Translations under genes and position numbers: made by a program
Shown: positions 6,777 to 31,139 of the stretch, piece by piece
Numbering within the stretch: the first letter of the stretch is position 1
Layout of the letters: every line of letters starts with the position of its first letter
From: a virus
Taxonomy: Duplodnaviria > Caudoviricetes
Length of the DNA stretch: 31,139 nucleotides
Virus record (IMG/VR): IMGVR_UViG_3300032305_000230
Location: 1-31,139 of that record
Strand: one strand, 5' to 3'
Notes under the pieces: generated by a model
The model's input: the letters and a program-made list of their open reading frames with translations, nothing else
What the model was told of the DNA's origin: nothing
The model's database searches: none

Positions 6777-6792
6777 TTAATGATTATCTCTA

Positions 6793-6821
6793 TTGCTTGT
6801 CTTTAATATTAGGCACATTAT
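6793..6821 (+). promoter_or_regulatory. Putative sigma70 promoter for pqqA
   Basis: TTGCTT(6793-98)-N17-CATTAT(6816-21), followed by a small hairpin AAGCA-CTTT-TGCTT (6829-42) and RBS AAGGA (6853-57). Confidence 0.5.
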
Positions 6822-6864
6822 TAAACACAAGCACTTTTGCTTATCATATATTAAGGACTACATC

Positions 6865-6936
6865 ATGTGGACTAAACCAACAGCTACTGAAATGCGTTTT
6901 GGCTTTGAAGTAACAATGTATGTTATGAATAAGTAA
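6865..6936 (+). CDS. pqqA: Pyrroloquinoline quinone precursor peptide PqqA (23 aa)
   Basis: Hand translation gives MWTKPTATEMRFGFEVTMYVMNK*, with the canonical W-x-x-P...R-x-G-F-E-V-T-x-Y signature including ExxxY. RBS present. Too short for the ORF track. Confidence 0.95.
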   Translation: MWTKPTATEMRFGFEVTMYVMNK

Positions 6937-7033
6937 GTTTTACGTAGACATAAACCAGCGTCAATGCAGTACAGAATCCTAAAGCAAAGGCGCTGGCGTA
7001 ACAAATAATATATTGTAAGATTACATCAATCAT
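6923..7033 (-). CDS. Small membrane protein (36 aa)
   Basis: MIDVILQYIICYASAFALGFCTALTLVYVYVKLTYS*, one TM helix. Last ORF of the leftward operon; overlaps the pqqA 3' end by 14 bp. Confidence 0.5.
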   Translation of the reverse strand: MIDVILQYIICYASAFALGFCTALTLVYVYVKLTYS

Positions 7034-7092
7034 TGTAAACAGTCTTTAAAATTAACTCGCAGTAATGAATAGCTTTTCTCACATTTAGTCAT
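7026..7092 (-). pseudogene. Deletion remnant of a DUF3310-like gene
   Basis: Strong RBS AAGGAG plus ATG (7092) opens only 20 codons. An overlapping frame reads VRKAIHYCELILKTVYND*, like the DUF3310 C-terminal KAIHY helix. Confidence 0.5.
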
Positions 7093-7167
7093 GCAATTCT
7101 CCTTTATAGTGGACATAATGTTAGCTATAAGCCACATATCATCCGTTAAGATACATGAAAGTAACTC

Positions 7168-7311
7168 TTACTTAACTTCATCTGCTTTTCCTGTCATCTG
7201 ATGGTAATTACCTTGCCCATCTTTAAGCGTAATCGTGCAGCTTTGATGCAAACTAGCCCACAATATCATGGTTAAAAATGTTACTAGGCATCCTAAGATT
7301 GCGTTATTCAT
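7168..7311 (-). CDS. Small membrane-anchored protein (47 aa)
   Basis: MNNAILGCLVTFLTMILWASLHQSCTITLKDGQGNYHQMTGKADEVK*; ATGA overlap with the upstream stop. Confidence 0.55.
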   Translation of the reverse strand: MNNAILGCLVTFLTMILWASLHQSCTITLKDGQGNYHQMTGKADEVK

Positions 7312-7850: not shown

Positions 7851-7871
7851 GATAGTTTCCTAATAGTTGGT

Positions 7872-7930: not shown

Positions 7931-7940
7931 ATTCTTTACA

Positions 7941-10135: not shown

Positions 10136-10138
10136 TAT

Positions 10139-15102: not shown

Positions 15103-15556
15103 AAAAGAAGATACAAGGAAGATTAAACGCATCCCATCGCTTAAGAACTATGGTGGTGTGCGTACTATTCAGAAAACACTAGAACGTTCTGCAACACTAG
15201 AAGCCAATCGTGAGGCCGTCGCTTATGCCTTGCTAACAATGGCTAACACAAATCTTACTGACATTATGAGTTGGGATGAACATGGTAACATTAAGGTTAA
15301 AGCGTCGCACGATATACCAGAGCATGCGTTACAGGCGATTAAGAGTATCAAATCAAATACTCGCTACGATAAGGAAGGGAACGCGACTACGACACTTGAC
15401 ATCGAACTCTTTGATAAAATTGGTGTTCTTAGGTTATTGGCAAAAGCGTCTGGGTTACTCGACCAGGCTCAAGAATCTGACAAGCCTTCAGTAATTGGCG
15501 TAAACATTGTGGCTCCAGACCCTATAGATGCAGAGGTAATAGATGGCGAAAACTAA
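15095..15556 (+). CDS. terS: Terminase small subunit
   Basis: Directly upstream of and overlapping terL; AIKSIK...IELFDK..LRLL pattern. Confidence 0.7.
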   Translation: MAEKEDTRKIKRIPSLKNYGGVRTIQKTLERSATLEANREAVAYALLTMANTNLTDIMSWDEHGNIKVKASHDIPEHALQAIKSIKSNTRYDKEGNATTTLDIELFDKIGVLRLLAKASGLLDQAQESDKPSVIGVNIVAPDPIDAEVIDGEN

Positions 15557-17099
15557 AGAACAGTCTGCCAAACAGGTATCGTTTGACGGATTAAACCTAA
15601 ACTTTGCAAAGTCTCCAGAGGTATATAGGTTCCTGCAAGACGATTCGTTTGTGCAAGGGCTAATGGGGCCTGTAGGTAGTGGTAAGTCATACGCCTGCTG
15701 TGCAAAAATTTTTATAAAAGCGTTACAACAAAAGCCATCCCCTGTTGACAACGTGCGTTATTCACGTTTTGCTGTAGTCCGTAACAGTTATCCTATGTTA
15801 AAGACAACAACCATCAAGACATGGCTTGACTTATTCCCTGAGTCTACGTTTGGCCCTATGCTTTGGACTCCACCGATTACGCACCATATACGTTTGCCTG
15901 CAAAGGGAGACGCGGCTGGGGTTGACTGCGAGGTTATCTTCTTAGCACTTGACCAACCTAAAGATGTGCGTAAACTTTTGTCCTTGGAACTTACAGGAGC
16001 ATGGGTAAATGAAGCCAGAGAACTACCTAAAGCTGTTATTGACGGCCTTACTCATCGGGTTGGTCGCTATCCTACAAAGCGTGACGGTGGCGCGACATGG
16101 CACGGAGTCTTTATGGACACCAACCCAATGGATGATGACCATTGGTGGCACCGAGTAGCAGAGAAAGAAAAGGTAACAGGCTTATACGCTTGGAACTTCT
16201 TTAAACAACCAGGTGGGGTGATTGAAGTAGACCCTGCTAACTTGCCTGATAACCCAGAAGCCAATGACCATATCTTTGCGTCAGGCCGTTGGTGGAAGAT
16301 TAATCCTAAAGCAGAAAATCTAAATAATCTACCTGCTGGCTACTATCCACAGATGCTTGGTGGCAAGAACCTTGACTGGATTCGCTGTTACGCAGAAGGT
16401 AAATATACCTATGTGCAAGAAGGTCGCCCTGTGTGGCCTGAGTATAACGACCAAATGATGACAGCTACGATTGAGTATGACGATTCACAGCCTATACAGA
16501 TTGGCTTGGACTTTGGTTTAACGCCAGCAGCAGTCATTGGTCAGCGTTTAGCTAATGGTCGATGGGTTGTATTACATGAGATTGTTACTGAGGACATGGG
16601 TTTGGAGAGGTTTGGTCAACAACTACTTGCAGAATTAAACGCACGTTATCCTAAAGCACAGGTGATGATGTGGGGAGACCCTGCTGGTATGCAAAGGGAT
16701 GCCATTTATGAAGTCACCGCGTTCGATTATCTCAGGACTCTTGGTCTACGCGCACAACCAACCCATTCGAACGACTTTAAAGTCCGTCGTGAGGGGGCTG
16801 CTGCTCCTATGCAACGTCTTATTGATGGTAAACCTGGACTAATGGTGGACACTTCATGCAAGATGCTACGTAAATCCTTGGCTGGTGGGTACCATTTCAA
16901 GCGCGTATCAGTAGGGGCAGGGCAAGAACGCTTCCGTGATGCACCAAATAAGAACGAACATTCCCACGTTGGTGATGCTTTTGGCTATTTGATGCTTGGT
17001 GGTGGGGAACATAAGCGCATGACACGTAATCCACTTGCATCTAGTGGCCCTATCTTTGCTAAAACCGTGATGACTGACTTCGATGTATTTAAGTATTAG
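15543..17099 (+). CDS. terL: Terminase large subunit
   Basis: Walker A GPVGSGKS, Walker B AWVNE, motif III DTNP, nuclease motifs GLDFG and SHVGDA. Confidence 0.95.
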   Translation: MAKTKEQSAKQVSFDGLNLNFAKSPEVYRFLQDDSFVQGLMGPVGSGKSYACCAKIFIKALQQKPSPVDNVRYSRFAVVRNSYPMLKTTTIKTWLDLFPESTFGPMLWTPPITHHIRLPAKGDAAGVDCEVIFLALDQPKDVRKLLSLELTGAWVNEARELPKAVIDGLTHRVGRYPTKRDGGATWHGVFMDTNPMDDDHWWHRVAEKEKVTGLYAWNFFKQPGGVIEVDPANLPDNPEANDHIFASGRWWKINPKAENLNNLPAGYYPQMLGGKNLDWIRCYAEGKYTYVQEGRPVWPEYNDQMMTATIEYDDSQPIQIGLDFGLTPAAVIGQRLANGRWVVLHEIVTEDMGLERFGQQLLAELNARYPKAQVMMWGDPAGMQRDAIYEVTAFDYLRTLGLRAQPTHSNDFKVRREGAAAPMQRLIDGKPGLMVDTSCKMLRKSLAGGYHFKRVSVGAGQERFRDAPNKNEHSHVGDAFGYLMLGGGEHKRMTRNPLASSGPIFAKTVMTDFDVFKY

Positions 17100-17571
17100 A
17101 GAATTAAACGATAATATGCCCAAGATAAACGGGATAGTGTTTGCTCCGTTTGTTTTTGAACATGCAATGGACATTGAAGGCGGTGAGTTTGCTGGATATT
17201 CTGCACAGCGCATGGTTGGCGTAAAAATAATGCTAGAAACTCAAGCACAATTTGGATTTGCCTACACTTGTTTCCTACATGGACAGCCTGTTGCTGTGTT
17301 TGGCTCATCTTTACTGTGGGGTGGCGTTGCAGAAATGTGGTCTGTCATTGGAGATGTAGCTAGAACCAAGCCAATTGCCATGACAAAGATAGGAATTGCA
17401 TTTGCAGATATATCAGAGATAGCTATGGGCTTGCATAGATTGCAAATAACTGTTAAAACATCAGATAATCGCGCTATTAATTGGGCTAGAGCTATCGGTT
17501 TTATATCCGAGTGTACTATGAAGCAATATAGTGAGGATAGAGAGGACTTTAATTTAATGGTTAGGGGTTAA
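17083..17571 (+). CDS. GNAT-fold acetyltransferase-like protein
   Basis: LHRLQITV..DN.RAINWARAIGF..E..MKQY matches the C-terminal GNAT (RimJ/RimL-type) pattern. Confidence 0.7.
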   Translation: MYLSIRELNDNMPKINGIVFAPFVFEHAMDIEGGEFAGYSAQRMVGVKIMLETQAQFGFAYTCFLHGQPVAVFGSSLLWGGVAEMWSVIGDVARTKPIAMTKIGIAFADISEIAMGLHRLQITVKTSDNRAINWARAIGFISECTMKQYSEDREDFNLMVRG

Positions 17572-17573
17572 TT

Positions 17574-17822
17574 ATGGGAAGTAAAGTCGGTGGAAGCTCT
17601 AGTGCAGGAGTACAAAGTAAGGCATCTGGACAAAAATATGGAAGTTTAAATATGAGTTCATTTTACGATTTACAAAATGCTACAAATAGAGCCAATGGAA
17701 AAAAAGATTCTAAATCAACAGAGCCTGCTATAGATGAAAATTTAGGGTCAGTCTCATCTGTTTCTACTATTAGAAAAAATAGAGGTTTGTTGTCAAATTC
17801 AATGTCAGATACTTTAGGTTAG
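17574..17822 (+). CDS. Small putative virion protein (AT-rich, paralogue-like of the next gene)
   Basis: Starts MGS.. and ends R.LLS....TLG, like 17832-18071. Confidence 0.55.
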   Translation: MGSKVGGSSSAGVQSKASGQKYGSLNMSSFYDLQNATNRANGKKDSKSTEPAIDENLGSVSSVSTIRKNRGLLSNSMSDTLG

Positions 17823-17831
17823 GAGATAAGC

Positions 17832-18071
17832 ATGGGCAGTATTCTTGGTGGTGGTGATGGTGGTGCAGAAGCAGCAAGACAGCAATTGGCAATGCAACAA
17901 GCTGAAACAGAGCGCTTGCGTAAACAAGAAATGGAAACAAGGCGTGACTTGGGTGAGGAATTAGCATCTAAACGTCTAGCTCGCGCTCGTGGTGGCGCTC
18001 GTATGTTGTTATCAGAAGCACGTACAAACCCAGAAGAAGGCTTGTCTGCACAAACTACGCTAGGTGCTTAA
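17832..18071 (+). CDS. Small putative virion protein upstream of the portal
   Basis: MGSILGGG, coiled coil, RMLLS...TLGA; RBS AGGAG. Confidence 0.65.
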   Translation: MGSILGGGDGGAEAARQQLAMQQAETERLRKQEMETRRDLGEELASKRLARARGGARMLLSEARTNPEEGLSAQTTLGA

Positions 18072-18072
18072 C

Positions 18073-18222
18073 ATGGAAAAGACAAAGATGCAAAAGAAAG
18101 TGTCTAAAGTCATGCGTGAGTATAAGGCTAGCAAACTTAAATCTAGCTCTGGTGATAAAGTTGTAAACAAAGACCAAGCTATTGCAATCGCAATGTCTGA
18201 GGCAGGAGTAAAACGCAAATGA
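18073..18222 (+). CDS. Small basic protein (DUF6496-like, 49 aa)
   Basis: KVSKVMREYKASKLKSSSGDKVVNKDQAIAIAMSEAG; missed by the ORF track. Confidence 0.75.
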   Translation: MEKTKMQKKVSKVMREYKASKLKSSSGDKVVNKDQAIAIAMSEAGVKRK

Positions 18223-18374
18223 AAGCTGGATTATATGCAAACATTCATGCAAAACGTAAGCGTATTGAAGCTGGCTCTAAAGAAGAAATGCGTGAGCCTG
18301 GTTCAGAAGGCGCTCCTACAGATGCAGCATTTAAGAAAGCAGCTAAGACTGCTATGAAAAAGAAGCCTAAATAA
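18219..18374 (+). CDS. Small basic phage protein (51 aa)
   Basis: MKAGLYANIHAKRKRIEAGSKEEMREPGSEGAPTDAAFKKAAKTA...; translationally coupled on both sides. Confidence 0.75.
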   Translation: MKAGLYANIHAKRKRIEAGSKEEMREPGSEGAPTDAAFKKAAKTAMKKKPK

Positions 18375-18967
18375 TGGCTATTCAAGTAGAGCGCGAGTCA
18401 TCTACCACCAAGTCTAGGTTTGTATCGCCTACCTATACAGACAAAGATGGCGTACAGCAAGTTATTGGCTCTGATAGGTCAATGCCTATCATTGACGTAA
18501 ACCATCTTCGTTTGCATGAAGGTCGTGCATACTATGCTTATCACACACATAAAGATACAGGCAGATTGGCAGTTGGCTCAAGCATTAACATTGCTTTAGC
18601 TTTTCCAGCAGGAGTGGATGCTCATGCCGAAATTGATTATCAATGTGGTGGCGAGGCTGAGATTTATGTATATGAATCTCCAACAACAAGTGGTGGCACA
18701 GCCATGACTTTACATAGGCGCAATAGAGTAATTAATACAGCTAGTCAAGGCGTTGCTGTTTTAAATCCTACGGTAACCGCAGTTGGAACCGAGTTTTACT
18801 CAGAGCTGATTACAAGTGCAGAGGGTCAAGGGAATAGAAGTGGCGCTGGTGGTCGTGGTATTAGTTTTGAATTTATATTAAAGCCATTAACAACATATTT
18901 ATTCCGCTTAACTAATGTAAATGGGGCGTCACAAATGGCTGAAATGCGTATAGATTGGTATGAATAA
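18374..18967 (+). CDS. Hypothetical protein, probably structural (beta-rich)
   Basis: ORF track; coupled within the late operon. Confidence 0.65.
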   Translation: MAIQVERESSTTKSRFVSPTYTDKDGVQQVIGSDRSMPIIDVNHLRLHEGRAYYAYHTHKDTGRLAVGSSINIALAFPAGVDAHAEIDYQCGGEAEIYVYESPTTSGGTAMTLHRRNRVINTASQGVAVLNPTVTAVGTEFYSELITSAEGQGNRSGAGGRGISFEFILKPLTTYLFRLTNVNGASQMAEMRIDWYE

Positions 18968-19236
18968 TGAAGAAAGAACATAAGAATCCAGAGGGCGGAT
19001 TAACAGAAGCTGGGCGTAAATACTTTAAACGCACAGAAGGTGCTAATCTAAAGGCTCCTGTTAAAGAAGGCACAAACCCTAGACGCGTATCATTTGCAGC
19101 TAGGTTTGGTGGAATGAGTGGGCCTCTTGTGGATGAGAATGGCAAGCCTACTAGATTGAAGTTAGCACTAAAGGCTTGGGGATTTGGCAGTAAAGAAGCC
19201 GCACGTAAGTTTGCAAATACACATAAAAAGAGTTAG
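18967..19236 (+). CDS. Small basic phage protein (GGL..AGR...SF.AR..GM...LKAW family)
   Basis: Motif recognisable from small proteins near podovirus portal genes. Confidence 0.7.
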   Translation: MKKEHKNPEGGLTEAGRKYFKRTEGANLKAPVKEGTNPRRVSFAARFGGMSGPLVDENGKPTRLKLALKAWGFGSKEAARKFANTHKKS

Positions 19237-19244
19237 GAAACAAT

Positions 19245-20828
19245 ATGGCTGAAACTAGATTATCCCCAGAGCAAATTCTCAAGCGTCACGAGATTGCTTT
19301 GACCAAGAAAGAGGAGTTCCGTAGCCTGTACGATGAGGCTTACGAATTTGCATTGCCACAACGGAATCTGTATGACGGATTTTATGATGGTAAGGTAGGT
19401 GGCGCTAAGAAGATGAACCGTGTGTTTGATGCTACAGCTATTAACTCTACACAACGCTTTGCCAACCGCATGCAGTCAGGTATTTTCCCTCCGCAAACTA
19501 AGTGGTGTCGTCTTGAGGCTGGTACAGATATTCCTGCTGACCGTAAAGCAGAAGCACAAGGTGCGCTAGATGTATATACCGAGAAGATGTTTGCAACGAT
19601 TAAGCAATCTAACTTTGACATTGCAGTAGGCGAATCGCTACTAGACTTGTGCGTAGGCACATCTGTAATGATGGTACAGCCTGGCGATGATACTAGCCCA
19701 ATTAACTTTATCCCTGTGCCACAATTCTTAGTCGCTTTTGAAGAAGGCGCTAATGGTCGTGTAGATAATGTGTATCGTCGTATGCGTTTAAAAGGCGAGG
19801 CTATTCAGCAACAATGGAAAGACGCTAAGATTGATGGCGCATTAAAGAATAAGATTGACCAAAAGCCTACAGAAGATATTGAGCTAATTGAGGCTACTGT
19901 TTATGACCAAGTTAAAGGCGATTATGGTTACTACGTTATCCATAAAGAGAGCAAGACTTGCATTGTTTACCGTCGTATGAAGTTTAGCCCTTGGGTTGTA
20001 TCACGCTACATGAAAGTAGCTGGTGAAATCTATGGTCGTGGCCCGTTAATCACAGCATTGCCTGACATCAAGACATTGAACAAAGTGCTAGAGCTAGTGC
20101 TTAAAAATGCGTCATTAGCTATTGCTGGTGTTTATACTGCTGCTGATGATGGCGTACTTAACCCTAATACCGTCACAATCGCTCCAGGCGTGATTATTCC
20201 TGTTGCTCGTAACGGTGGGCCACAAGGCGAGTCATTAAAGCCTTTACCGCGCTCTGGTGACTTCAATGTTTCTCAAATTGTGATGAACGACTTGCGTATG
20301 AACATTAAGTCAATCTTGCTTGATGAATCATTGCCACCAGATAACATGTCAGCTCGCTCTGCTACAGAAGTAGTAGAACGTATGAAGCAGTTATCACAGA
20401 ACTTAGGCTCTGCATTTGGTCGTTTGATTAATGAAACGATGGTTCCATTAGTAGAGAAGATTCTACAGATTATGGATGAGCGTGGCATCATTGACTTGCC
20501 ATTAAAGGTGAATGGTCTTGAGATTAAGGTAACACCTGTGTCTCCATTGGCTATGTCACAGAACATGGATGACGTACAAAACATCTTGCAATACGCGCAA
20601 ATCGTACAGCAGTCTGGCCCAGATGGTCAATTTGCTATGAAAACCGATGCCCTATTGGACTTGATTGCTGATAAAATGTCTATTCCACAGGCTGTTCGTA
20701 ACTCACCAGCAGAGCGTGATATGATGAAACAACAAGCAATGCAAATGGCACAACAGGCTAGAGAACAAGCAGACCCAAATAATCCTGTTGACATGCAATT
20801 ATTGGAGGCGATGAAAAATGCAGGGTAG
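19245..20828 (+). CDS. Portal (head-to-tail connector) protein
   Basis: VFDATA, YGRGP..ALPDIKTLN and SATEV..R motifs of T7 gp8/Bbp21-type portals; 527 aa. Confidence 0.93.
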   Translation: MAETRLSPEQILKRHEIALTKKEEFRSLYDEAYEFALPQRNLYDGFYDGKVGGAKKMNRVFDATAINSTQRFANRMQSGIFPPQTKWCRLEAGTDIPADRKAEAQGALDVYTEKMFATIKQSNFDIAVGESLLDLCVGTSVMMVQPGDDTSPINFIPVPQFLVAFEEGANGRVDNVYRRMRLKGEAIQQQWKDAKIDGALKNKIDQKPTEDIELIEATVYDQVKGDYGYYVIHKESKTCIVYRRMKFSPWVVSRYMKVAGEIYGRGPLITALPDIKTLNKVLELVLKNASLAIAGVYTAADDGVLNPNTVTIAPGVIIPVARNGGPQGESLKPLPRSGDFNVSQIVMNDLRMNIKSILLDESLPPDNMSARSATEVVERMKQLSQNLGSAFGRLINETMVPLVEKILQIMDERGIIDLPLKVNGLEIKVTPVSPLAMSQNMDDVQNILQYAQIVQQSGPDGQFAMKTDALLDLIADKMSIPQAVRNSPAERDMMKQQAMQMAQQAREQADPNNPVDMQLLEAMKNAG

Positions 20829-23115
20829 AGATGATATTGCACGTATAGCTTCGGCTAGGGCAGTTGAAATTGCTTCAAGAGCAATTAGTCTTGCTTCGTC
20901 AGTCAAAGGCGAAAAGGGAGATAAGGGAGACCCAGGCGAGATTGTCCTTAAGAATGTTCCTGTTCCTGGAGAAAAGGGCGAGCAAGGCGACAAAGGCGAA
21001 CGTGGCTATACTGGAGCGCAAGGCCCTAAAGGTGATAAAGGAGATAGGGGCGAAAAAGGCTATGATGCTGTTGGCGAAAAAGGTGACAAAGGCGACAAGG
21101 GTGATACTGGCCCACAAGGTGAGCGTGGGTTTACTGGGCCTAAAGGATTTAAAGGTGACGAAGGCGAGCGAGGTCTAACTGGCCCAATACCTAAGCATGA
21201 GATTAAAGGACTTAAGTTTAGATTTCAGCAAGACGATGGAGATTGGGGCAAGTGGATTATTGTTCCAACAGGCGGTGGCGGTGGTGGTCGTGATGACAAA
21301 TTATTTGACCGTCAAAAAGAATTAGTAATTATTGCTGATGCCTATAAAAATAACATTAATCCTTTTCCAGATGCAACTGGTGGTGGTATGGTTTACCCTG
21401 GCGCTGGCATCCCTAATTCTACTGGTAGCGCATGGGGAACATCTTATGGTGTTACAGGTACAGGTAGTGTTGTATTAAGTGATGCACCTTCTTTAACAGG
21501 CGCAGTAACAATAGGCAGCACTACTGGTACCGCAACAGTAACATTAGGGCAAAGCACAGGCGCACAAACAGTCAACATTGCAACTGGTGTTAATAACTTA
21601 AGTGCTAAAACAGTTAATATAGGCACAGGTGCAACTACTGGGGCTACTAATATAACTATTGGGCCAACAGGAACTGGTTCAGGTAATACAACTATAAATA
21701 TCGGGGAAAATGCAAGGACTTCTAACACTACAACAGTTAATATTGCTACAGCAGCTACTTCTAGCGGTGTTTCAGTTATTAGACTTGGCACTATTGCTAG
21801 TGGAACAGCAAACATTGCTATTGGTTCAAATACCGCATCAGGTGCAACAACGATTAATGGAGAGGTATCTTTAACAGCAACAAACCAAGCAATTAATATT
21901 GGTGGCACAAACAGTACAGGCTTAATTACGCTAGGCAGACCAACAACATCATCACAAACTATTGACATAGCTAACGCTGTTCTTGCTACTGGTAGAACTC
22001 AAACAATTAACGTAGGTGCATCAGGTGCATCAGGCTCTACAACTAACATTGCTATTGGCTCTACAGCAGGTACAAGCACTACAACAGTCAATGGGGCAGT
22101 AACTCTATCAGCAACAACACAAGCACTTAATCTAGGCAATAGTCAATCAAGTGGTGCAATAACTGTTGGCGGTACAAGTGCTACTGGTGCAATTGCAATA
22201 GGGCAATCTACAGGCGCACAAACAGTCAATATTGCCACAGGTGCTAATACAGCATCTACTAAAACAGTTAATATAGGCACAGGCGGTACATTTACTACTA
22301 ATATTAATATGGGGAATACCGCAGGTAGCGGCACATTAACTTTTGGACAATCCACAGGCTCACAACAAATTAATATAGGTACAGGTGCTACATTAAATGC
22401 ACAAAATAAAAATATTTTTATAGGCACAAATGGTGCTGTAGGCTCAACAACTAATATTAGAATAGGAAATTCAGCAAGACCATTGACTGCTTTTATTTTC
22501 TTAGATGGCATTGTTACATATGGAACAAGTTTTGCACAAACACCTGTTACAGTTGCAAATTTACCATCAGGTGGAGATGCTCTTGTAGGAGACAGATATA
22601 TTGTAAGCAATGCATTAAGTCCAAGAGCAGGTTCAACTGTCGTAGGCGGCGGTGCAGCAACAATGCCTGTTTACTATGACGGCACTAATTGGATATGTGA
22701 TGCAGGGTTAGGCGCAACGACAGGAACAGGTAGTGTTGTTTTAAGCGATAGCCCAACATTTACAGGCATTGTAACTGCAAACAATGTTCGTAGTAATTCA
22801 ACAACAATAGCCAGCGCATCAACAATCACACCAACATCAAATACTACAAATCAATACACAGTTACTGCGCTTGCAGTTCCAGCAACAATTGCAGTACCTT
22901 CAGGAAGTCCTATTGATGGACAAAAACTTTCAATAAGAATTAAAGATGATGGTACAGCACGAGCATTAACTTGGACTACATCAGCAGGTGGGTTTAGAGT
23001 TATTGGTACGACACTACCAACGACTACAACAGCATCTAAGGTTACTTATGTAGGCTGTGTCTATAACTCACAAGACTCCTTTTGGGATGTTTTGGCTGTA
23101 GCAACTCAAGCATAG
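20818..23115 (+). CDS. Fibre protein with collagen-like (Gly-X-Y) stalk and beta-helical repeats
   Basis: GEKGDKGD-type triplets at ~20908-21189, repeated T(V/I)NIGTG units, and a fibre-type C-terminal domain; RBS GGAGG. Confidence 0.8.
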   Translation: MQGRDDIARIASARAVEIASRAISLASSVKGEKGDKGDPGEIVLKNVPVPGEKGEQGDKGERGYTGAQGPKGDKGDRGEKGYDAVGEKGDKGDKGDTGPQGERGFTGPKGFKGDEGERGLTGPIPKHEIKGLKFRFQQDDGDWGKWIIVPTGGGGGGRDDKLFDRQKELVIIADAYKNNINPFPDATGGGMVYPGAGIPNSTGSAWGTSYGVTGTGSVVLSDAPSLTGAVTIGSTTGTATVTLGQSTGAQTVNIATGVNNLSAKTVNIGTGATTGATNITIGPTGTGSGNTTINIGENARTSNTTTVNIATAATSSGVSVIRLGTIASGTANIAIGSNTASGATTINGEVSLTATNQAINIGGTNSTGLITLGRPTTSSQTIDIANAVLATGRTQTINVGASGASGSTTNIAIGSTAGTSTTTVNGAVTLSATTQALNLGNSQSSGAITVGGTSATGAIAIGQSTGAQTVNIATGANTASTKTVNIGTGGTFTTNINMGNTAGSGTLTFGQSTGSQQINIGTGATLNAQNKNIFIGTNGAVGSTTNIRIGNSARPLTAFIFLDGIVTYGTSFAQTPVTVANLPSGGDALVGDRYIVSNALSPRAGSTVVGGGAATMPVYYDGTNWICDAGLGATTGTGSVVLSDSPTFTGIVTANNVRSNSTTIASASTITPTSNTTNQYTVTALAVPATIAVPSGSPIDGQKLSIRIKDDGTARALTWTTSAGGFRVIGTTLPTTTTASKVTYVGCVYNSQDSFWDVLAVATQA

Positions 23116-23123
23116 GATAAAAC

Positions 23124-23288
23124 ATGAAAATAGATTTTGAGTTTGAAACAAAATATGGTGTATATCGTGATGCGTTGTATTTAGAAGATACTCATAATTT
23201 TACAGAGCAAGAAGTAGATGCCATGAAACAACAGCGTGTTGATAATTGGATTGCTATTGTTGAGAATCCACCAGAGGCTATTGAGTAA
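23124..23288 (+). CDS. Small fibre-associated protein (54 aa)
   Basis: MKIDFEFETKYGVYRDALYLEDTHNFTEQEVDAMKQQRVDNWIAIVENPPEAIE*; RBS AGGA; TAATG coupling to the next gene. Confidence 0.75.
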   Translation: MKIDFEFETKYGVYRDALYLEDTHNFTEQEVDAMKQQRVDNWIAIVENPPEAIE

Positions 23289-25333
23289 TGGCTGATAGAT
23301 ATTGGGTAGGTGGTACAGCATCTTGGGATGGTACAGTAGGTACTAAGTGGTCAGATACGTCTGGCGGTGCTGGCGGTTTTTCTGTTCCTACTACTGCGGA
23401 TGATGTATTTTTTGATGTTGCTTCTGGTGTAGTTACTTGCACGATTGCTACTGGTAACACAGGTGCTAAATCAATTAATTGCACAGGGTTTACTGGAACA
23501 ATTGCAGGTTCAGCAAATATAACTGTAGCTGGCAGCATTACTTTATTTGTTACTCAAACCTATACTTATACAGGAACAGTAACAATCACAGGTACAGGAA
23601 CGCTTACAACTGCTGGAAAAACATTTAATGCAGTAACGATTGATGGAGTTGGAATTACAGTAACACTTGGTGATGCGTTCAATGGTGGAAACATTAGTTT
23701 TATTGTTACTAGAGGTACATTAAATACCAACAACTATGCACTTACTTGTGGTGCATTTCAGTCTTCAAACTCAAACGTTAGAACTATTAATCTTGGCTCA
23801 AGTGTATTAACAATTATTGGCGGTTCAGGTGAGGTATTACAATTTACAACTGCTACAAACTTAACATTTAATGCTGGAACATCACAAATTAATGTTCAAG
23901 GTAGCAATATTAATATTCAGGGTGGAAATTTAACTTTTTACAATCTTAATTTAACAACACAAAATTCTACAAATAGAAATTTGCAGGGAAATAATACTTT
24001 TAACAATTTAACATTTACTACTGGTAGCGCAGGGTTATCTCAAACAAATTTATCTGGCAATCAAACTGTTAATGGCACATTTACCTGTGCAGGAACTTCT
24101 GTTATCTCTAGGGGTTTTGTTCGTTCTGACGCTATTGGTGCAACTAGAACAATAACTGCCAATGCTATTTTAGCTGATGATTGTGATTTCAGAGATATTA
24201 CTTTAGCTGGTGCGGCAGCAGGTGCAAGTCCAACAAGAGCAGGTGATTGTGGTGGAAATAGTGGAATTACATTTCCTGCGGCTAAAACAGTTTATTGGAA
24301 TCTTGCTGGAACACAAAACTTAAACGCTACTGCTTGGGCAACAACTTCAAATGGAAGCCCAGCTATAAATAACTTTCCGCTTGCTCAAGATACAGCAACA
24401 TTTACAAATGATGGTTCAGCAGGAACTGTAAATTTTAATCCAATATACAACATTGGTTCTCTTGATTGTTCTACAAGAACAACTAGCGTATCTCTAAACT
24501 TTAATAATCAAACCAATTTTTATGGTTCATTTACTCTTGGGTCAGGAGTATCCGTTGTAACAGGTGTAGCTACTCAAACCTTTTGTGGTCGTGGCACACA
24601 AACATTTACATCTGCTGCTAAAACAATAATTTTTTCATTTGTAGTTGACAAACCTGCTGGCGCATTTGAATTAGGCGATGCTTTAATTGTAACAAGGAGT
24701 ATCGCACTTACAAGAGGTACATTTAATGCTGCTGGCTATAACTTCACTTGCACAACATTTGATTCTAATAATGCCAATACTAGAACAATTACAATGGGTA
24801 GTGGCTTATGGACATTAAGTGCTACAGGTACTGTATGGAACACAGTCACTACAACAGGGCTTACATTTAATAAAGATTCTGCAAATATATTATTATCAGA
24901 TACATCTACATCGGCAAGAACCTTTTCTGGTGGCTCACTAACATTTAACAAATTAACGATTGGTGGCGCAACAGGAATATCTACAACTACAATTTTTAGT
25001 GCTTCTACATTTAGTGAGCTTGCATCTACAAAAACAGTAGCACATACTATTAGTTTTAATGCTAATCCAATTATAGGCACTTGGTCTGTAACAGGTACAT
25101 CAGGAAATGTAGTTACAGTAAATAGTAGTTCAGTAGGAACAAGACGAACAATTAATCTAACAAACGCTACTACTGGAATTGACTATTTAAGCGTTAAAGA
25201 CATTGGTGTTAGCACTATAAATAAGTTTTATGTTGGTGCAAATTCTACTGATAGCGGTAACAACCTAAATGTGTATTTTATTGCAGCACCAACAAGTGGA
25301 GTAAATAGTAACTTTTTCTTTTTATTTGGATAA
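23288..25333 (+). CDS. Adhesin-like beta-helix virion protein (681 aa)
   Basis: RYWVGG...W...SGG....VPT..DDV.FD start, echoed near aa 335 (VYW...W.TTS.G.....P.AQD.A.F); Thr/Gly/Asn-rich. Confidence 0.7.
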   Translation: MADRYWVGGTASWDGTVGTKWSDTSGGAGGFSVPTTADDVFFDVASGVVTCTIATGNTGAKSINCTGFTGTIAGSANITVAGSITLFVTQTYTYTGTVTITGTGTLTTAGKTFNAVTIDGVGITVTLGDAFNGGNISFIVTRGTLNTNNYALTCGAFQSSNSNVRTINLGSSVLTIIGGSGEVLQFTTATNLTFNAGTSQINVQGSNINIQGGNLTFYNLNLTTQNSTNRNLQGNNTFNNLTFTTGSAGLSQTNLSGNQTVNGTFTCAGTSVISRGFVRSDAIGATRTITANAILADDCDFRDITLAGAAAGASPTRAGDCGGNSGITFPAAKTVYWNLAGTQNLNATAWATTSNGSPAINNFPLAQDTATFTNDGSAGTVNFNPIYNIGSLDCSTRTTSVSLNFNNQTNFYGSFTLGSGVSVVTGVATQTFCGRGTQTFTSAAKTIIFSFVVDKPAGAFELGDALIVTRSIALTRGTFNAAGYNFTCTTFDSNNANTRTITMGSGLWTLSATGTVWNTVTTTGLTFNKDSANILLSDTSTSARTFSGGSLTFNKLTIGGATGISTTTIFSASTFSELASTKTVAHTISFNANPIIGTWSVTGTSGNVVTVNSSSVGTRRTINLTNATTGIDYLSVKDIGVSTINKFYVGANSTDSGNNLNVYFIAAPTSGVNSNFFFLFG

Positions 25334-25338
25334 ATATT

Positions 25339-25605
25339 ATGGCACTATTAAAATCAGTAAACACAACATTTGGAATTGATGCAACTTATTGGAACATCTT
25401 TTCTATTACAGAGGACTTTAAGAATAAAAATCTTGAAGTGGTTATCAACGGCTATGTAAGCAAAGAAGTGCGTGACGAAAATCACAATCCTGTTGCATGG
25501 CAGAACCTAACATTTACAGGCGATGAATATATTAAAGATGCCACTCGTGAAGCTGTGTATTTGGCATTAAAAGCTAAAGACTTTTCTGATGCTACGGATG
25601 CTTAA
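25339..25605 (+). CDS. Fibre-associated / assembly protein
   Basis: MAL.K...T.FG..A.YW.I...Y.ALK...F..A.DA pattern; follows the fibre genes. Confidence 0.6.
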   Translation: MALLKSVNTTFGIDATYWNIFSITEDFKNKNLEVVINGYVSKEVRDENHNPVAWQNLTFTGDEYIKDATREAVYLALKAKDFSDATDA

Positions 25606-25946
25606 TGGATAACATAAATCTTGATACTCGCAAGAGTATGGGTAAAAGAAAAGATAATTCTGAAAAAGGCATGGGATATTTTGGCCCAATGAAACGCCCA
25701 GATGGTGGAATTTCTACAGAAATAAGTATTGGAACAAATATTGGGGGAAAAGAAGTTGATATTCCTTTGATGGTTCCTACATTAGAAACTAAAGAACTTA
25801 AATACTTATTAGACACGCCTGTAGATAGCAAATCATTTATGCAAAACATGCCACAGACTATTATTAAAAAAGCGGTTGAACATGCCAACATGAGAATGAA
25901 AATGGGCAAGTCTCCATTTAAAATGGCTGATGAGGAGTTTGAATGA
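25605..25946 (+). CDS. Phage hypothetical protein
   Basis: KG.GYFG...STEISI...IPL.VPTL...HA..R...GKSPF pattern. Confidence 0.65.
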   Translation: MDNINLDTRKSMGKRKDNSEKGMGYFGPMKRPDGGISTEISIGTNIGGKEVDIPLMVPTLETKELKYLLDTPVDSKSFMQNMPQTIIKKAVEHANMRMKMGKSPFKMADEEFE

Positions 25947-26218
25947 TGCAACTAGACGGATGGGAAGGACTAGAATCACAGCAAACAGACATTCGTGATG
26001 TCGAGCAAGCGCGTGAAGATTTAAGTAAGCTATGCCATCGAGTGTTAGCATCTAACGAAGAAGGTAAAAAATTAATGGAATGGTTACGCCAAACCATATT
26101 AGAGCATCCTGTAGCCGTGCCAGGAGCTGACCCTAGCTTTGCATTTTATCGTGAGGGTCAATGTAGCGTTGTACGGGATTTGGAATATCGCATAAAACAA
26201 GCAAAGGAACTTAAATGA
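25943..26218 (+). CDS. Bbp19-like protein
   Basis: EGKKLMEWL...FYREGQCSVV pattern; directly upstream of the scaffold. Confidence 0.75.
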   Translation: MMQLDGWEGLESQQTDIRDVEQAREDLSKLCHRVLASNEEGKKLMEWLRQTILEHPVAVPGADPSFAFYREGQCSVVRDLEYRIKQAKELK

Positions 26219-26988
26219 CCGAAGAAAATAACCAACCCCAAGCTGAGGAAAAAGTCAGCGAAGGCTTATTGGATAACGCTTCATTTGAAAGTCAGCAAGA
26301 AGTAGATACAAACAAGACAGAAATTAGTCATCTACAAGCACCAGAGGATGACAGCCCTCTTGAGCGACCAGATTGGTGGCCTGAGAATTTCTGGAAGAAG
26401 GATGATGCAGAGCCTGACCTTGAAGCTATTGCAAAGTCATGGACAGATTTACGTAAGCAGATTAGTCAAGGTAAACATAAAGCCCCAGAAGATGGCAACT
26501 ATGATTTATCTGCATTTGGTAACACACCAGAAGATGACCCTGTTCGCCAACACGTTGCAGGCTGGGCTAAAGAGTATGGTGTAAGCCAGGTTGCTCTTGA
26601 TGCGCTAGTAAGCAAAGTCGTTGAGATGGGCGGAGAGCAAGTAGAACAAGTTAAATTTAGTGCTGCTGCTGAGAAGAAAGCCCTTGGCCCTAATGCTGAT
26701 TCAATCATTCGTGGCATGACAGAATGGGGTGCAGGCTTAGTCAACAAAGGCATTTGGGGTAAGGATGACTTTGAAGAATTTAAAATCATGGGCGGTACAG
26801 CCAATGGTATTAAAGCGCTAATGAAACTTCGTGAGTCTTATGAAGGTCGAATCCCTACGCACTCAGCTCCTGTTGATGGCGCACCATCTAAAGATGAATT
26901 GATGGGCATGGTTGGAGACCCAAAATACAAGACAGACCCAGCATATCGTGCTAAAGTAGAACGTATGTTTAATCAAGTATTCGGTTAA
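26215..26988 (+). CDS. Capsid scaffolding/assembly protein
   Basis: Acidic, with RPDW.PE.FW and C-terminal DPKY..DPAYR.KVE; upstream of the capsid gene. Confidence 0.8.
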   Translation: MTEENNQPQAEEKVSEGLLDNASFESQQEVDTNKTEISHLQAPEDDSPLERPDWWPENFWKKDDAEPDLEAIAKSWTDLRKQISQGKHKAPEDGNYDLSAFGNTPEDDPVRQHVAGWAKEYGVSQVALDALVSKVVEMGGEQVEQVKFSAAAEKKALGPNADSIIRGMTEWGAGLVNKGIWGKDDFEEFKIMGGTANGIKALMKLRESYEGRIPTHSAPVDGAPSKDELMGMVGDPKYKTDPAYRAKVERMFNQVFG

Positions 26989-27009
26989 GCATATTCTCCA
27001 ATAGACTTT

Positions 27010-27034
27010 TACCCACTTCGGTGGGTATTTTTTT
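27010..27034 (+). terminator. Intrinsic terminator after the scaffold gene
   Basis: TACCCAC-TTCG-GTGGGTA followed by T7. Confidence 0.9.
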
Positions 27035-27075
27035 GCCTGCTTAATAAATATTTTTAATTAAACTGGCAAAGTCTA

Positions 27076-27104
27076 TTGTATTTATTTATTAAGTATGGTA
27101 TAAA
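27076..27104 (+). promoter_or_regulatory. Putative promoter for the capsid operon
   Basis: TTGTAT-N17-TATAAA with an extended TG. Confidence 0.55.
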
Positions 27105-27245
27105 GCGCATACGGCATATCACATTGTGACCCGTAATTCAAGTAAACTTGACGAATGGCTGACGTAAATAGCAAGCAAAGGCCCGTTATTCGACGGCACA
27201 CCACAGCACAAAACTTTATTTTAATTCGTTATCAGGAGATACAAA

Positions 27246-28091
27246 ATGAGTATTGCATTGTCAAATGCTTTTGTAACCCTCTTTGACGCAGAAGTTAAAC
27301 AAGCATACCAAGGTAAAGCAATGTTGGTAGGTGCTGTACGTCAGCGTCGTGGGGTTGAAGGTTCTACAGTTAAATTTCCAAAAGTAGGTCGTGGCGTTGC
27401 TACACCTCGTATTGGTCAAACAGATGTTACACCATTAAACGTTGGTTTTTCTAACGTTACTTTAACATTGGAAGATTGGATTGCTGCTGAATACAGCGAC
27501 ATTTTCAGTCAACAAAAAGTAAACTTTGATGAGCGTTCAGAGCTTGTTCAAGTGCTAGGTAATGCTATTGGTCGTCGTCAAGACCAATTGGTATTAAGCG
27601 CATTGGCAAACTCAGGCACATCATTATCAGTTGGCAACGACGTTGGTGCTACTGACTCTAACATGAACGTAGCTAAACTTCGTCAAGCTAAAGGCTTGTT
27701 GGACAAAAACAACGTTCCACCTATGGACAGACATATTGTTATCCACTCAAATGGCTTGCAATCATTATTGTCAGAAACTGCTGTAACTAGCTCTGACTTT
27801 AATACTGTTAAAGCACTTGTTGCTGGTGAACTTGATACATTCTTGGGTTTCCAATTCCATGTATTAGGTGACCGTGCAGAAGGTGGCTTGGCAATTGATG
27901 GCAACTTAGACCGTACATGTTTTGCGTTCCACAAAGATGCAATCGGTTATGGCGAAGGTATTGCTCCAAAAACAGAAATCAATTACATCCCAGAAAAAAC
28001 ATCATTCTTGGTTGCATCTATGTTCTCTGCTGGCGCAACTACTATCGATGCCGAAGGTATTGTTTCAATCGTAGCTCGTGAAACAGCTTAA
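27246..28091 (+). CDS. Major capsid protein
   Basis: AFVT.F..EV..AYQ, V.FP.VG, A.GR..DQ and FLGF.F motifs; RBS AGGAG; follows the scaffold. Confidence 0.9.
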   Translation: MSIALSNAFVTLFDAEVKQAYQGKAMLVGAVRQRRGVEGSTVKFPKVGRGVATPRIGQTDVTPLNVGFSNVTLTLEDWIAAEYSDIFSQQKVNFDERSELVQVLGNAIGRRQDQLVLSALANSGTSLSVGNDVGATDSNMNVAKLRQAKGLLDKNNVPPMDRHIVIHSNGLQSLLSETAVTSSDFNTVKALVAGELDTFLGFQFHVLGDRAEGGLAIDGNLDRTCFAFHKDAIGYGEGIAPKTEINYIPEKTSFLVASMFSAGATTIDAEGIVSIVARETA

Positions 28092-28103
28092 GGAGAATAG
28101 ATA

Positions 28104-28382
28104 ATGGCTTATTCAGCAATTGGTTTTTCAACCGTAGCAGCTTCTAAAGCTGGTAACTCACCTGCAATTTATGCGTACAAGACTGCTGATGCAGTTGCAG
28201 ATGTTAATACAACTGGTTACTTCAACGCTCTTTCTACAACATTAAGCGTAGGTGATTTGATTTATGCAGTAACATCAACAGGCACTACTGCTGTTGCTAC
28301 TTTACTTTATGTTCTTTCTAACGCTTCTGGCGTTGTTGACGTAAATGATGGTACAACACTAGCTAATACTGATGGTGATTAA
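28104..28382 (+). CDS. Capsid decoration/cement-like protein
   Basis: Y.T.D....V...GYFN......L..GD.I pattern; RBS AAGGAG; shares a terminator with the capsid gene. Confidence 0.6.
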   Translation: MAYSAIGFSTVAASKAGNSPAIYAYKTADAVADVNTTGYFNALSTTLSVGDLIYAVTSTGTTAVATLLYVLSNASGVVDVNDGTTLANTDGD

Positions 28383-28395
28383 TAAGTAAGAAACT

Positions 28396-28430
28396 AGCTA
28401 CCCTGCTCAAAAGGTGGGGTAGCTTTTATT
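28396..28430 (+). terminator. Intrinsic terminator after the capsid genes
   Basis: AGCTACCCTGCT-CAAAA-GGTGGGGTAGCT followed by TTTATT. Confidence 0.8.
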
Positions 28431-28446
28431 ATATGTAGAGGATAAT

Positions 28447-29061
28447 ATGGCATCTGGTGATTCTGGAGTTTCAATCTGTTCTGACGCATTGCTAATGCTA
28501 GGGGCAAAGCCAATCTCATCTTTTACCGAAGGCACAGACGAAGCCTCTATTTGTGACCGCCTATACCCAGACATTCGTGACCAAGCTCTAATGATTTACC
28601 CTTGGAGTTTCTCATTTAAAAAGACGCAACTCGCGCAATTAGTAACTACCCCAACAAACGAATACAAGTATGAGTATCAATTGCCTGCTGATAGGCTTGG
28701 CGCACCACGCGCTGTATATTCATCTAATGGCCTAAATGAAATGCCAATGGTCAACTATCGTATTATGGGTGCAAAGTTATTAACTAATGAAACAATCGTG
28801 TATGTTGATTATCAATACTACACGCCTGAGACTGAGATGCCTGTGTGGTTTATTCAGCTTCTTAAATACTTAGTTGCATGGCATATCTCTATCCCTATTA
28901 CTGACCAAACAGAAAAGGCTGCTTATTGGCAAAGCGTAGCCGTTGGTTCTCCTGGTGAGAATGGTCGTGGTGGTTATATGCGTACAGCAATGAATATTGA
29001 TGGGCAAAATCAGCCAGCCAATAGCATTAAAGACTTCTCACTAATTTCTGTAAGAGGATAG
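28447..29061 (+). CDS. Tail tubular protein A (T7 gp11-like adaptor)
   Basis: IC..AL..LGA..I.S..E, YPWSF and Y.LP.D motifs. Confidence 0.85.
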   Translation: MASGDSGVSICSDALLMLGAKPISSFTEGTDEASICDRLYPDIRDQALMIYPWSFSFKKTQLAQLVTTPTNEYKYEYQLPADRLGAPRAVYSSNGLNEMPMVNYRIMGAKLLTNETIVYVDYQYYTPETEMPVWFIQLLKYLVAWHISIPITDQTEKAAYWQSVAVGSPGENGRGGYMRTAMNIDGQNQPANSIKDFSLISVRG

Positions 29062-29064
29062 TAA

Positions 29065-31139
29065 ATGGCTCGTTTTGTTACAATGCAAACGAACTTCACG
29101 GCTGGTGAGCTAGACCCTCTTATCCGCGCACGTAATGATTTGAAGTCATACGGCAATGCTTTAGAAAAAGCAACTAATATCATATGTCAACCTCAAGGTG
29201 GCATTACTCGTCGTAGTGGTACACGTTACATTATGTCTTTGCCAAACGCAGGAGCAGACTCTGCTGGTAATGGCGTTCGCTTAGTTCCATTTGAGTTTTC
29301 TACATCTGATAGCTACATGCTGTGTTTTACGCATAATCGGATGCACATATTTAAGAATGGCGCATTAGTTACTAACATTAATGCGACAGGCAATTCTTAC
29401 TTAGTCACAAGTATTACATCTGCAATGTTAGACGAATTATGCTGGACACAATCTGCTGATACATTAATTGCCGTTCATCAAGACTTAGCCCCAGTAAAAA
29501 TTGTGCGTGGCGCAAATGATGCGTCATGGACAGCAACAACTATTGCATTTGATAGCACAGCAAAATATGCGTTTACATTAGGATATAGAAATCCACCAGG
29601 AACATTAACGCCATCTATTGTAACGGGTAAAATTACACTTACTGCATCACAGGCCGTAGTTACTGGCACAGCTCAGGCTGGCTCAACATCTACTACAATT
29701 AAATTGGCAGCCGCAGCCTCTGCTACTGATGATGCTTACACAGCAATGTATGTCACTATTACTGGTGGTACTGGCTCTGGTCAAACAAAACTTATTACAG
29801 ATTATGTTGGCTCGACAAAAGTTGCAACAGTAAATTCTGCTTGGACAACAACGCCAGATGCAACTTCAACCTACTCATTGGCTGTATTTAATTCTTTATT
29901 AGAAGGCCAGTATATTAATGCTACGCCACAAGGCAGAGCAAAGATTGTGCAATACGTAAGTGGCACAGTAGTCAATGCTGTAACTGAATTTCCATTTTTT
30001 GACTTAACAGCAATTCCTAATCAAAGTTGGGAAATTGAAAGTGGTTATGAACCTGTATGGTCAAGCACTCGTGGTTATCCTCGTACCGTAACATTCCATC
30101 AAGGGCGCTTATATTTTGGTGGAAGTAAAACTAGACCCTCTACCATTTGGGGTAGTCGTGTAGGTCAGTTCTTTGACTTTGAAGCGTCAGAAGGTTTTGC
30201 TGACGATGCCGTAGAAGCAACACTAGATACCAATACATTTAACGCGATTACAGATATTATCTCTGGTCGTGACTTACAAATCTTTACGACTGGTGGTGAG
30301 TTCTATGTACCACAACAAGGTCTTGAGCCTATTACCCCAGCATCGTTCTTTGTAAACACAGCAGGGCGCAATGGTAGTAAGCCAGGCGTTCGTGTTCAGT
30401 TACTAGACGCAGGCACATTATTTGTTCAGCGCCAAGGAAAGTCATTAAGCGAAGTTTCATTTAGCGATACGCAACTTACGTATGTTACTAGCAAGATTTC
30501 ATTATTATCAGGGCATTTGCTTAAAGCACCAAAACGCATGGCATTGCGTAAAGCAGTAGATACTGATGAAAATGACTTGTTACTTATTTCTAATGCTACA
30601 GATGGAACAATTGCCGCTTACTCATTATTGAGAGCTGAGAACGTTATTGCCCCATCAGAGTTTATTACAAATGGCGGTGAGTTTTTAGATGTTAGTGTAG
30701 ACATTACTGATATTTATACTGTAGTAAAACGCACTATTAATAGTACGGTTCAATACTATGTAGAAAAGTTTGAGCATGGGTTATTAACTGATTGCTCTAA
30801 AACAGGCGGAGCAGTATCATCATTAACAGCTACACATTTAGCCGCTAAGACAGTAAATCTTTTACTTGATGGGTTGGTTCAAGCTGATACAGTTGTTGCG
30901 GCTGGTGGCTCCGTAACGCTTCCTAGAGCGTCTACAACAAGTTATCAGGTAGGATTACCCATTGCTATTGAAGCTAGAACAATGCCAGTTGATATTAAAC
31001 TGCAAACTGGTACGCGAGTTGGCTTTAAGAAACGTATTGTAGAAGTTAATGCGCTAGTGTTAGAAACTCAGCACATGAAGATTAATGGCGTTGAAGTTCC
31101 GTTTAGAACATTTGATACTGCTAATATATTAGATGCTGA
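29065..31139 (+). CDS. Tail tubular protein B (T7 gp12-like nozzle), 3'-truncated
   Basis: MARFVTMQTNFTAGELDP...PQGGITRRSGT and GYPRTVTFHQGRLYFGG; the frame is still open at the window end, so it is absent from the ORF track. Confidence 0.9.
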   Translation, partial: MARFVTMQTNFTAGELDPLIRARNDLKSYGNALEKATNIICQPQGGITRRSGTRYIMSLPNAGADSAGNGVRLVPFEFSTSDSYMLCFTHNRMHIFKNGALVTNINATGNSYLVTSITSAMLDELCWTQSADTLIAVHQDLAPVKIVRGANDASWTATTIAFDSTAKYAFTLGYRNPPGTLTPSIVTGKITLTASQAVVTGTAQAGSTSTTIKLAAAASATDDAYTAMYVTITGGTGSGQTKLITDYVGSTKVATVNSAWTTTPDATSTYSLAVFNSLLEGQYINATPQGRAKIVQYVSGTVVNAVTEFPFFDLTAIPNQSWEIESGYEPVWSSTRGYPRTVTFHQGRLYFGGSKTRPSTIWGSRVGQFFDFEASEGFADDAVEATLDTNTFNAITDIISGRDLQIFTTGGEFYVPQQGLEPITPASFFVNTAGRNGSKPGVRVQLLDAGTLFVQRQGKSLSEVSFSDTQLTYVTSKISLLSGHLLKAPKRMALRKAVDTDENDLLLISNATDGTIAAYSLLRAENVIAPSEFITNGGEFLDVSVDITDIYTVVKRTINSTVQYYVEKFEHGLLTDCSKTGGAVSSLTATHLAAKTVNLLLDGLVQADTVVAAGGSVTLPRASTTSYQVGLPIAIEARTMPVDIKLQTGTRVGFKKRIVEVNALVLETQHMKINGVEVPFRTFDTANILDA

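Follow-up and report, generated by a model that had tools for sequence, protein, structure and literature searches.

The virus record analysed here encodes an intact precursor peptide of the redox cofactor PQQ and none of the enzymes that mature it. We predict, and from the genomic evidence consider probable, that this phage PqqA is made in infection, matured by host enzymes and keeps methanol dehydrogenase supplied with PQQ. The window, by which we mean the whole stretch of 31,139 nucleotides, is the whole virus record (CheckV completeness 92%), with phage genes on both sides of pqqA. The gene is the last of the plus strand before the late (+) and early (-) blocks converge, in the following setting:

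5015-5428, + strand: M15-type endolysin, by profile match (late block)
5438-5824, + strand: ORF of the late block upstream of pqqA
5821-6582, + strand: metallophosphoesterase, by profile match (late block)
6582-6776, + strand: 64-aa ORF at the end of the late block upstream of pqqA
6793..6821, + strand: candidate sigma-70 promoter, TTGCTT-17 nt-CATTAT, 7/12 consensus matches, picked by eye from an alignment
6829..6842, + strand: predicted 5-bp hairpin at the likely transcript 5' end, a possible mRNA stabiliser
6853..6857, + strand: ribosome-binding site AAGGA, 7 nt 5' of the ATG, read from the sequence
6865..6936, + strand: pqqA, 23-codon PQQ precursor peptide (Glu15, Tyr19), by Pfam and TIGR profiles; identical peptide in the genomes G437 and G439
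6923..7311, - strand: three small convergent ORFs (47, 35 and 36 aa), variable between relatives
8207-8812, - strand: YqaJ exonuclease, an early recombination gene, convergent with the late block
9164-9748, - strand: Sak annealing protein, an early recombination gene
15543..31137, + strand: terminase large subunit, portal, scaffold, major capsid and tail tubular genes, by profile matches; MEP301-like

Translation of 6865-6936 (+), 72 bases, gives 23 residues and a stop, with Glu15 and Tyr19 at the ExxxY spacing. The peptide scores 40.7 bits against Pfam PF08042 (cut-off 21.1, E 2.2e-10) and 39.3 bits against TIGR02107 (cut-off 20), both about twice the curated cut-offs, and it has the traits of the family (a Glu-x-x-x-Tyr core near the C-terminus, an N-terminal leader and a length in the 23-24 aa range). 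The sequence-only reading had claimed a 23-codon PqqA ORF with its own ribosome-binding site and had proposed a PqqA HMM as a check; the translation, the AAGGA site and both profiles bear it out. The whole record has one copy of pqqA. An AGGA, GGAG, GAGG or AAGG motif lies upstream in 106/106 distinct viral pqqA copies. A 47-aa reading from the in-frame TTG at 6793 was rejected, the open frame being just 26 aa in the relative G046, and every one of the 120 pattern-fetched viral copies starts with MW at the ATG (the pattern itself fixes MW); the short frame in G046 and the MW start of the viral copies therefore place the start of pqqA at 6865. Searches with the peptide found no family in PHROGs and no match among PDB sequences. 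Rfam gave nothing at the pqqA locus, nor did the repeat search among the families displayed, and no tRNA or tmRNA was found in the window.

The three small minus-strand ORFs at 6923-7311 gave no Pfam match. The last of them, which is hydrophobic, has a 14-nt overlap with the stop end of pqqA; the stop and start of the 35-aa and 36-aa ORFs overlap as well. Homologues of the 47-aa ORF were identified at two related loci (L268, L249) and a partial homologue of the 36-aa ORF at a third (L080). Both neighbours of pqqA are antisense in 32/87 loci, a count from a crude ORF caller that is indicative only.

The closest cultured phage is MEP301 (MW452941), with which the window shares a terminase, portal, capsid and tail-tube module and its gene order, with 79.5% identity for TerL and 79% for portal and capsid, and pqqA occupies the same lysis/recombination junction in both. 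Two complete close relatives of 33.9 and 36.1 kb (G046 and G047) have TerL identities of 98% and 96%, and in TerL and capsid trees they form with the window a supported clade apart from MEP301. The window phage is thus a relative of MEP301 at family-like depth and, by the tree test, not of the same genus. Tail-fibre genes are also present on the plus strand. Two long low-complexity ORFs lie 3' of the portal gene (20818-25333), one of 765 aa with collagen repeats and one of 681 aa without a family match; both are missing from, or only partly common to, most relatives compared, and they probably encode head or tail fibres. A marginal Rfam match to int-alpA (10135-10201, +; 36.1 bits vs 35.8) in the gap that separates the divergent early blocks may be due to chance.

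In these metagenomes pqqA is a short repeat able to mislead assemblers, with a depth 10-100x that of its flanks in most sequencing runs compared, so a misjoin was a real risk, and many contigs in those runs have just the 72 bp in common with the window. Unitigs of run X1 tile 5700-8200 at a depth of 19-24 with zero differences (X1 is possibly the source sample, and so is not independent). An 11-kb contig of run X12, from another study, joins 6328-6914 to 7106-7600, with different DNA in the variable stretch 3' of pqqA, and at the loci L248 and L249 the DNA on either side of pqqA matches that of the window. A chimeric join, of which the sequence-only reading had warned, was looked for and not seen; both flanks are joined by a contig of another study, and the pqqA locus is therefore not a misassembly. 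A search with the exonuclease only gave 21 loci, nine of them at least 80% identical and 12 distant (34-57%). In six of the nine close relatives pqqA is at the same junction, and the other three (L250, L251, L253) end before the late-gene side; the fetched DNA of the 12 distant ones has no pqqA. In independent assemblies, then, a host-type gene sits between phage genes on both sides, as befits an auxiliary metabolic gene.

We identified candidate expression signals of the gene's own. The TTGCTT-17-CATTAT arrangement is kept in 6/7 close relatives, window included. A consensus scan called no promoter or terminator for the window pqqA (3 promoter-like sites vs 3.6 expected). The window hairpin alone is not significant (z -1.15). 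Across eight relatives 89.7% of its cells are paired, and the two compensatory pairs come from a single sequence; it is kept in all seven close relatives and broken in MEP301 (15/500 shuffles, a weak signal). Among viral copies, 37/106 have a perfect TATAAT upstream (11.6 expected) vs 0/117 host copies, and the 28 bases 5' of the ribosome-binding site fold better than shuffles in 51/108 viral, 11/123 host and 11/106 control windows, although these promoter and hairpin counts are inflated because the viral loci are related and so are not independent samples. With matches at 5/6 TATAAT positions hosts are enriched too (60 vs 31.3 expected), and the viral and host sets both exceed expectation. 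A terminator at 6930-7030 (fold z -2.66) is not claimed; it lies inside a small antisense ORF and there is no U-tract on the plus strand. From these signals the pqqA message would appear to be self-standing and stabilised.

Codon variation points to selection on the peptide. In a set chosen by exonuclease and not by pqqA (the window and six relatives; L250, L251 and L253 left out), pooled pS is 0.386 and pN 0.072, giving a pN/pS of 0.19 over the 21 pairs of seven sequences, pairs that are not independent. Amino acid changes occur only at residue 6 and residues 20-23, with residues 7-19 invariant in the seven sequences, and Arg11 is encoded by both CGN and AGA codons among copies. Glu15 and Tyr19 are intact in all seven, and also in the cultured phages whose peptides were available. 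Synonymous sites vary while residues 7-19 are fixed, and therefore selection acts on the peptide and not on the DNA; pqqA is under purifying selection in the phage.

Lacking from the window record are PqqB, PqqC, PqqD, PqqE and PQQ dehydrogenase, so the earlier claim that no other pqq gene is present holds under profile search. Since pqqA occurs without pqqB, C, D or E, this is not a pqqABCDE operon; it matches the orphan pqqA copies of hosts. The same arrangement prevails in the 50 longest records (46 of the 120 pattern loci and four exonuclease relatives), in which 8-9 of 50-51 are at least 90% complete: none of the 50 has PqqD or an integrase, none has PqqE over its cut-off, and none of 51 has PqqB or PqqC. 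Positive controls for the PqqC, PqqE and PqqD profiles were detected. One of the 50 (G010) has a PQQ dehydrogenase, and within 9 kb it encodes a PQQ methanol/ethanol dehydrogenase, formate dehydrogenase alpha, pqqA and a TIGR04557 quinoprotein-associated SoxYZ-like carrier; pqqA beside these two dehydrogenases fits a role in methanol oxidation. The G010 record covers 72 kb of a large phage (CheckV 20%), with the cluster at L399:7990-16787 (G010:C1 about 33990-42790), near DnaK, IbpA, ClpS and CsgG-like genes, and its dehydrogenase is full-length.

Phage pqqA is widespread. A pattern scan of IMG/VR yielded 120 loci (107 distinct nucleotide sequences) from 4 of 64 parts, from which we estimate about 2000 pqqA-bearing stretches; the pattern fixes the peptide core, so these loci show spread and not conservation. 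Compared by neighbourhood they form three large groups, with 13 singletons left over. One group consists of small phages in which exonuclease and annealing genes lie near pqqA, another of T4-like phages in which clamp loader and polymerase do, and in the third pqqA lies 3' of the major head gene. In GenBank, 12 of 50,697 phage records match PqqA. Nine of these are Methylophilales or Methylophilaceae phages, belonging to six named phages (Venkman, MEP301, P19250A, MEP401, MEP402 and, in four records, Melnitz); the other three are one spring-water genome and two weak Acinetobacter matches. Those cultured phages that match clearly all infect methylotrophs. In none of the five matching cultured-phage records examined is pqqA annotated. 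In Melnitz MZ577097 (L404:2461-2580) a hypothetical protein is annotated opposite pqqA, just before tRNA-Leu, and the true gene was apparently missed.

Within the phage family of the window the gene is accessory and dispensable. A terminase search gave 80 loci, and the records of 36 of the longest were searched for pqqA (control 5/5); none of the 36 has it, including 0/12 that are at least 90% complete. Eleven of those 12 have a GC of 0.46-0.62, whereas pqqA-bearing members have 0.38-0.41, and the high-GC relatives probably have other hosts. Two low-GC relatives also lack the gene, one 98% complete (G071) and one with the junction covered (G072). The same junction minus pqqA is seen at L374:10317-10441 (G071) and L360:9481-9600 (G072), which are natural controls.

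The host is likely a member of the Methylophilaceae, judging by the peptide and the likeness to MEP301. The suggestion of the sequence-only reading that the peptide resembles that of this family and that the host belongs there is thus supported. The exact 23-residue peptide occurs, among cellular genes, in 2/151 Methylophilaceae-family genomes (G437 and G439), both with PqqD and PqqE over cut-off and with PQQ-dehydrogenase matches. In each the identical copies are tandem stand-alone pqqA pairs, about 180-200 bp apart, beside ABC-transporter genes; the G439 pair also adjoins a methionine sulfoxide reductase gene (loci L406-L409 cover both genomes). Of the viral peptides, 53/120 are identical to a sampled host peptide and 44/120 are one residue off. 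The degenerate pattern of the IMG/VR scan, applied to GTDB, matched 126 stretches in 5 of 64 parts; most belong to Methylophilaceae, and some from Methylophaga and Burkholderiales carry other peptide types. Nucleotide distance to host pqqA singles out no genus: G439 has 5 differences and six hosts of several genera tie at 6. A capsid search of 361 Methylophilaceae-family genomes, run without a positive control, found no match and gives no host link.

Host genomes carry pqqA in several copies. According to the accessible part of PMC4109929, Methylophilaceae have 3-12 pqqA copies per one pqqBCDE, and all 20 host-side genomes that we sampled (chosen for having pqqA) have 2-9 pattern matches each. 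The 1.3-Mb genome of Ca. Methylopumilus universalis (G051, L400-L403) has three pqqA copies, all away from pqqBCDE, with no match to the pattern within 6.5 kb around that cluster; each copy has its own ribosome-binding site and a terminator-like hairpin. The several host copies per genome suggest that precursor dose is under selection.

The phage copies are like these orphan genes of Methylophilaceae (PMC4109929): the peptide is the same or differs at one residue, each gene has a ribosome-binding site of its own, and pqqBCDE lies elsewhere. They differ in being phage-borne and in having a perfect TATAAT and a 5' hairpin more often, and the window copy also differs in lacking a clear terminator and in running into a convergent ORF.

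Phage PqqA is already in print, and the window is another case of a known type. The guess that it had been noted in freshwater viromes proved correct: in the portion of the text available, Coutinho et al. (2020; PMC7678222 / 10.1101/2020.04.02.019802) report PqqA in the Lake Baikal T4-like virus population VP_266, likewise with a predicted Methylophilaceae host and a proposed boost to PQQ and methanol oxidation. VP_266 is T4-like and also encodes methanol dehydrogenase, whereas the window is a small MEP301-like phage with pqqA alone, whose complete relatives are 34-36 kb. Viral pqqA, pqqD and pqqE have been listed as phosphorus-cycling auxiliary metabolic genes of reservoir sediments (PMC13188868), where, in the accessible part of that article, pqqA is read as phosphate solubilisation and no peptide- or host-level analysis is given. 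PqqA figures only as a host peptide family in the part available of PMC11118758. All nine records of the OM43/LD28 phages MEP301, Venkman, P19250A, MEP401, MEP402 and Melnitz match PqqA, and none is annotated as pqqA where checked. The term pqq is absent from the main texts of PMC8024684, PMC10580990 and PMC8163748, and in PMC9004378 it refers to the medium only (papers on MEP301, MEP401/402, Venkman and Melnitz). Within the openly available main texts that it covered, our literature search found no paper on how widely phage pqqA occurs, on small phages that carry the precursor gene alone, or on pqqA in cultured phages.

The way in which the phage gene would act follows the host pathway. PqqD binds the leader of PqqA and PqqE cross-links its Glu and Tyr, and each PQQ made uses up one peptide. 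The parts played by PqqD at the leader and PqqE at the C-terminal Glu/Tyr are given in the accessible text of PMC10906245. We suggest that the intact host-type peptide is likely made during infection from the phage gene and is likely converted to PQQ by the PqqD, E, B and C of the likely Methylophilaceae host, and that the PQQ so made would help keep methanol dehydrogenase stocked with its cofactor. The phage would in effect add one stand-alone precursor cassette to the 3-12 host copies around a single enzyme operon. Its own promoter and 5' hairpin could let the phage message outlast host messages, and the benefit to the phage is one that we infer. The gene resembles cyanophage psbA, likewise a host gene with a consumed or turned-over product, carried by phages that infect one host group but belong to unrelated families. 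For psbA, expression and function in infected cells have been shown. Unlike psbA, pqqA is a 72-bp gene for a substrate, and its function is here a prediction from sequence.

Some points count against the supply of PQQ as the benefit. By our own reasoning, PQQ is recycled, so cells may need little new PQQ per infection, and, as noted above, two low-GC relatives do without the gene. The precursor may also not be what limits PQQ: in Acetobacter extra pqqAB raised PQQ only 29% vs eightfold with the whole cluster, according to the accessible part of PMC7936290. In a Hyphomicrobium overproducer, by contrast, pqqA expression was up about 3.5-4.3-fold, with pqqE also higher (PMC9851590, as far as that text was available).

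Other accounts of the gene have to be set beside supply to methanol dehydrogenase. PQQ has radical-scavenging activity, and the cofactor might be made and the benefit lie elsewhere in the infected cell, as a redox buffer or antioxidant or through other PQQ enzymes. The rarity of PQQ dehydrogenase among the long pqqA records (only 1/50) is in keeping with this, as are the ABC-transporter genes by the identical host copies and the methionine sulfoxide reductase gene in G439. Yet in the one phage record that has such an enzyme, a PQQ alcohol dehydrogenase, pqqA clusters with it and with formate dehydrogenase, the clearly matching cultured phages are all phages of methylotrophs, and a literature search on PQQ, antioxidant, reactive oxygen and phage infection returned nothing on the question by title; we consider this account unlikely. 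The sequence-only reading had offered as its alternative a decoy that titrates PqqD/PqqE. Surplus peptide would tie up these enzymes, or draw off SAM and reductant, and the host would make less PQQ. Such a decoy would need no partner enzymes, which agrees with their absence from 50-51 records, and the strong-promoter features suggest high output. However, the same 23 residues are encoded by two Methylophilaceae-family genomes with PqqD, PqqE and PQQ-dehydrogenase matches, and a peptide identical to the host substrate makes a poor dead-end decoy. A dead-end decoy would also be expected to lose Glu15 and Tyr19, which are intact in 7/7 sequences and in cultured phages, and the G010 gene lies beside a dehydrogenase. 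The decoy is thus disfavoured, and we judge it very unlikely.

The remaining accounts concern the DNA itself. In four relatives (L248, L252, L254, L268) the likeness to the window extends as far as the pqqA stop (6936), and in two others with another C-terminus, ICNR for VMNK (L249, L255), it ends inside pqqA (6924). Crossovers thus appear to fall inside pqqA, which with these end points, at its stop codon or 12 bases short of it, is also a crossover point. This ending of likeness, and the many contigs with only the 72 bp in common, would suit a gene kept mainly as a homology patch for swapping by the Sak/YqaJ module, with a peptide that matters little. A patch accords poorly with the excess of pS over pN, the fixed residues 7-19 encoded with both CGN and AGA at Arg11, and the ribosome-binding motif in every distinct copy, and we rate it quite improbable. 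That pqqA is an attachment site for host pqqA, or host contamination or a misjoin over a 72-bp repeat, is least probable of all and largely refuted. The excess depth of pqqA, the many copies in hosts and a resolvase domain in the relative G001, as in MEP301, gave it some footing. Against it, there is no tyrosine integrase in the window or the 50 records and no resolvase in the window, G046 or G047; the two complete relatives lack both recombinase families. At 80 host loci no phage structural or replication genes lie within 3 kb of pqqA (compared with a set of phage-locus proteins), and the same flanks recur in independent contigs and in cultured MEP301. An attachment site would pair an integrase in the phage with a prophage by the host gene, and this pairing was not found, the record being 92% complete.

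We therefore keep to phage PqqA as a probable source of PQQ for the methanol dehydrogenase of the host. A broader proposition, which we put forward tentatively as a real possibility, is that precursor-only pqqA is the signature auxiliary gene of methylotroph phages, as psbA is of cyanophages, that unrelated families have gained it repeatedly and given it a strong promoter and a 5' hairpin that stabilises the message, and that it raises burst size by supplying the host's peptide-modification pathway with the one part that is consumed. If this is true, no metabolic gene known from a phage is smaller than pqqA, and its 72 bp would serve as a marker tying thousands of aquatic viral contigs to methylotroph hosts. 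The gene is usable as a host marker: the low-GC family members examined have it, apart from two, and none of the 11 complete high-GC members does. Its role can be tested now because pqqA sits unannotated in cultured phage-host pairs (MEP301, P19250A and Venkman). The Methylophilaceae (LD28, Methylotenera and OM43) are abundant aquatic methanol oxidisers. Were their phages to provide PQQ precursor as a rule, methanol oxidation would continue in infected cells, with a bearing on one-carbon turnover.
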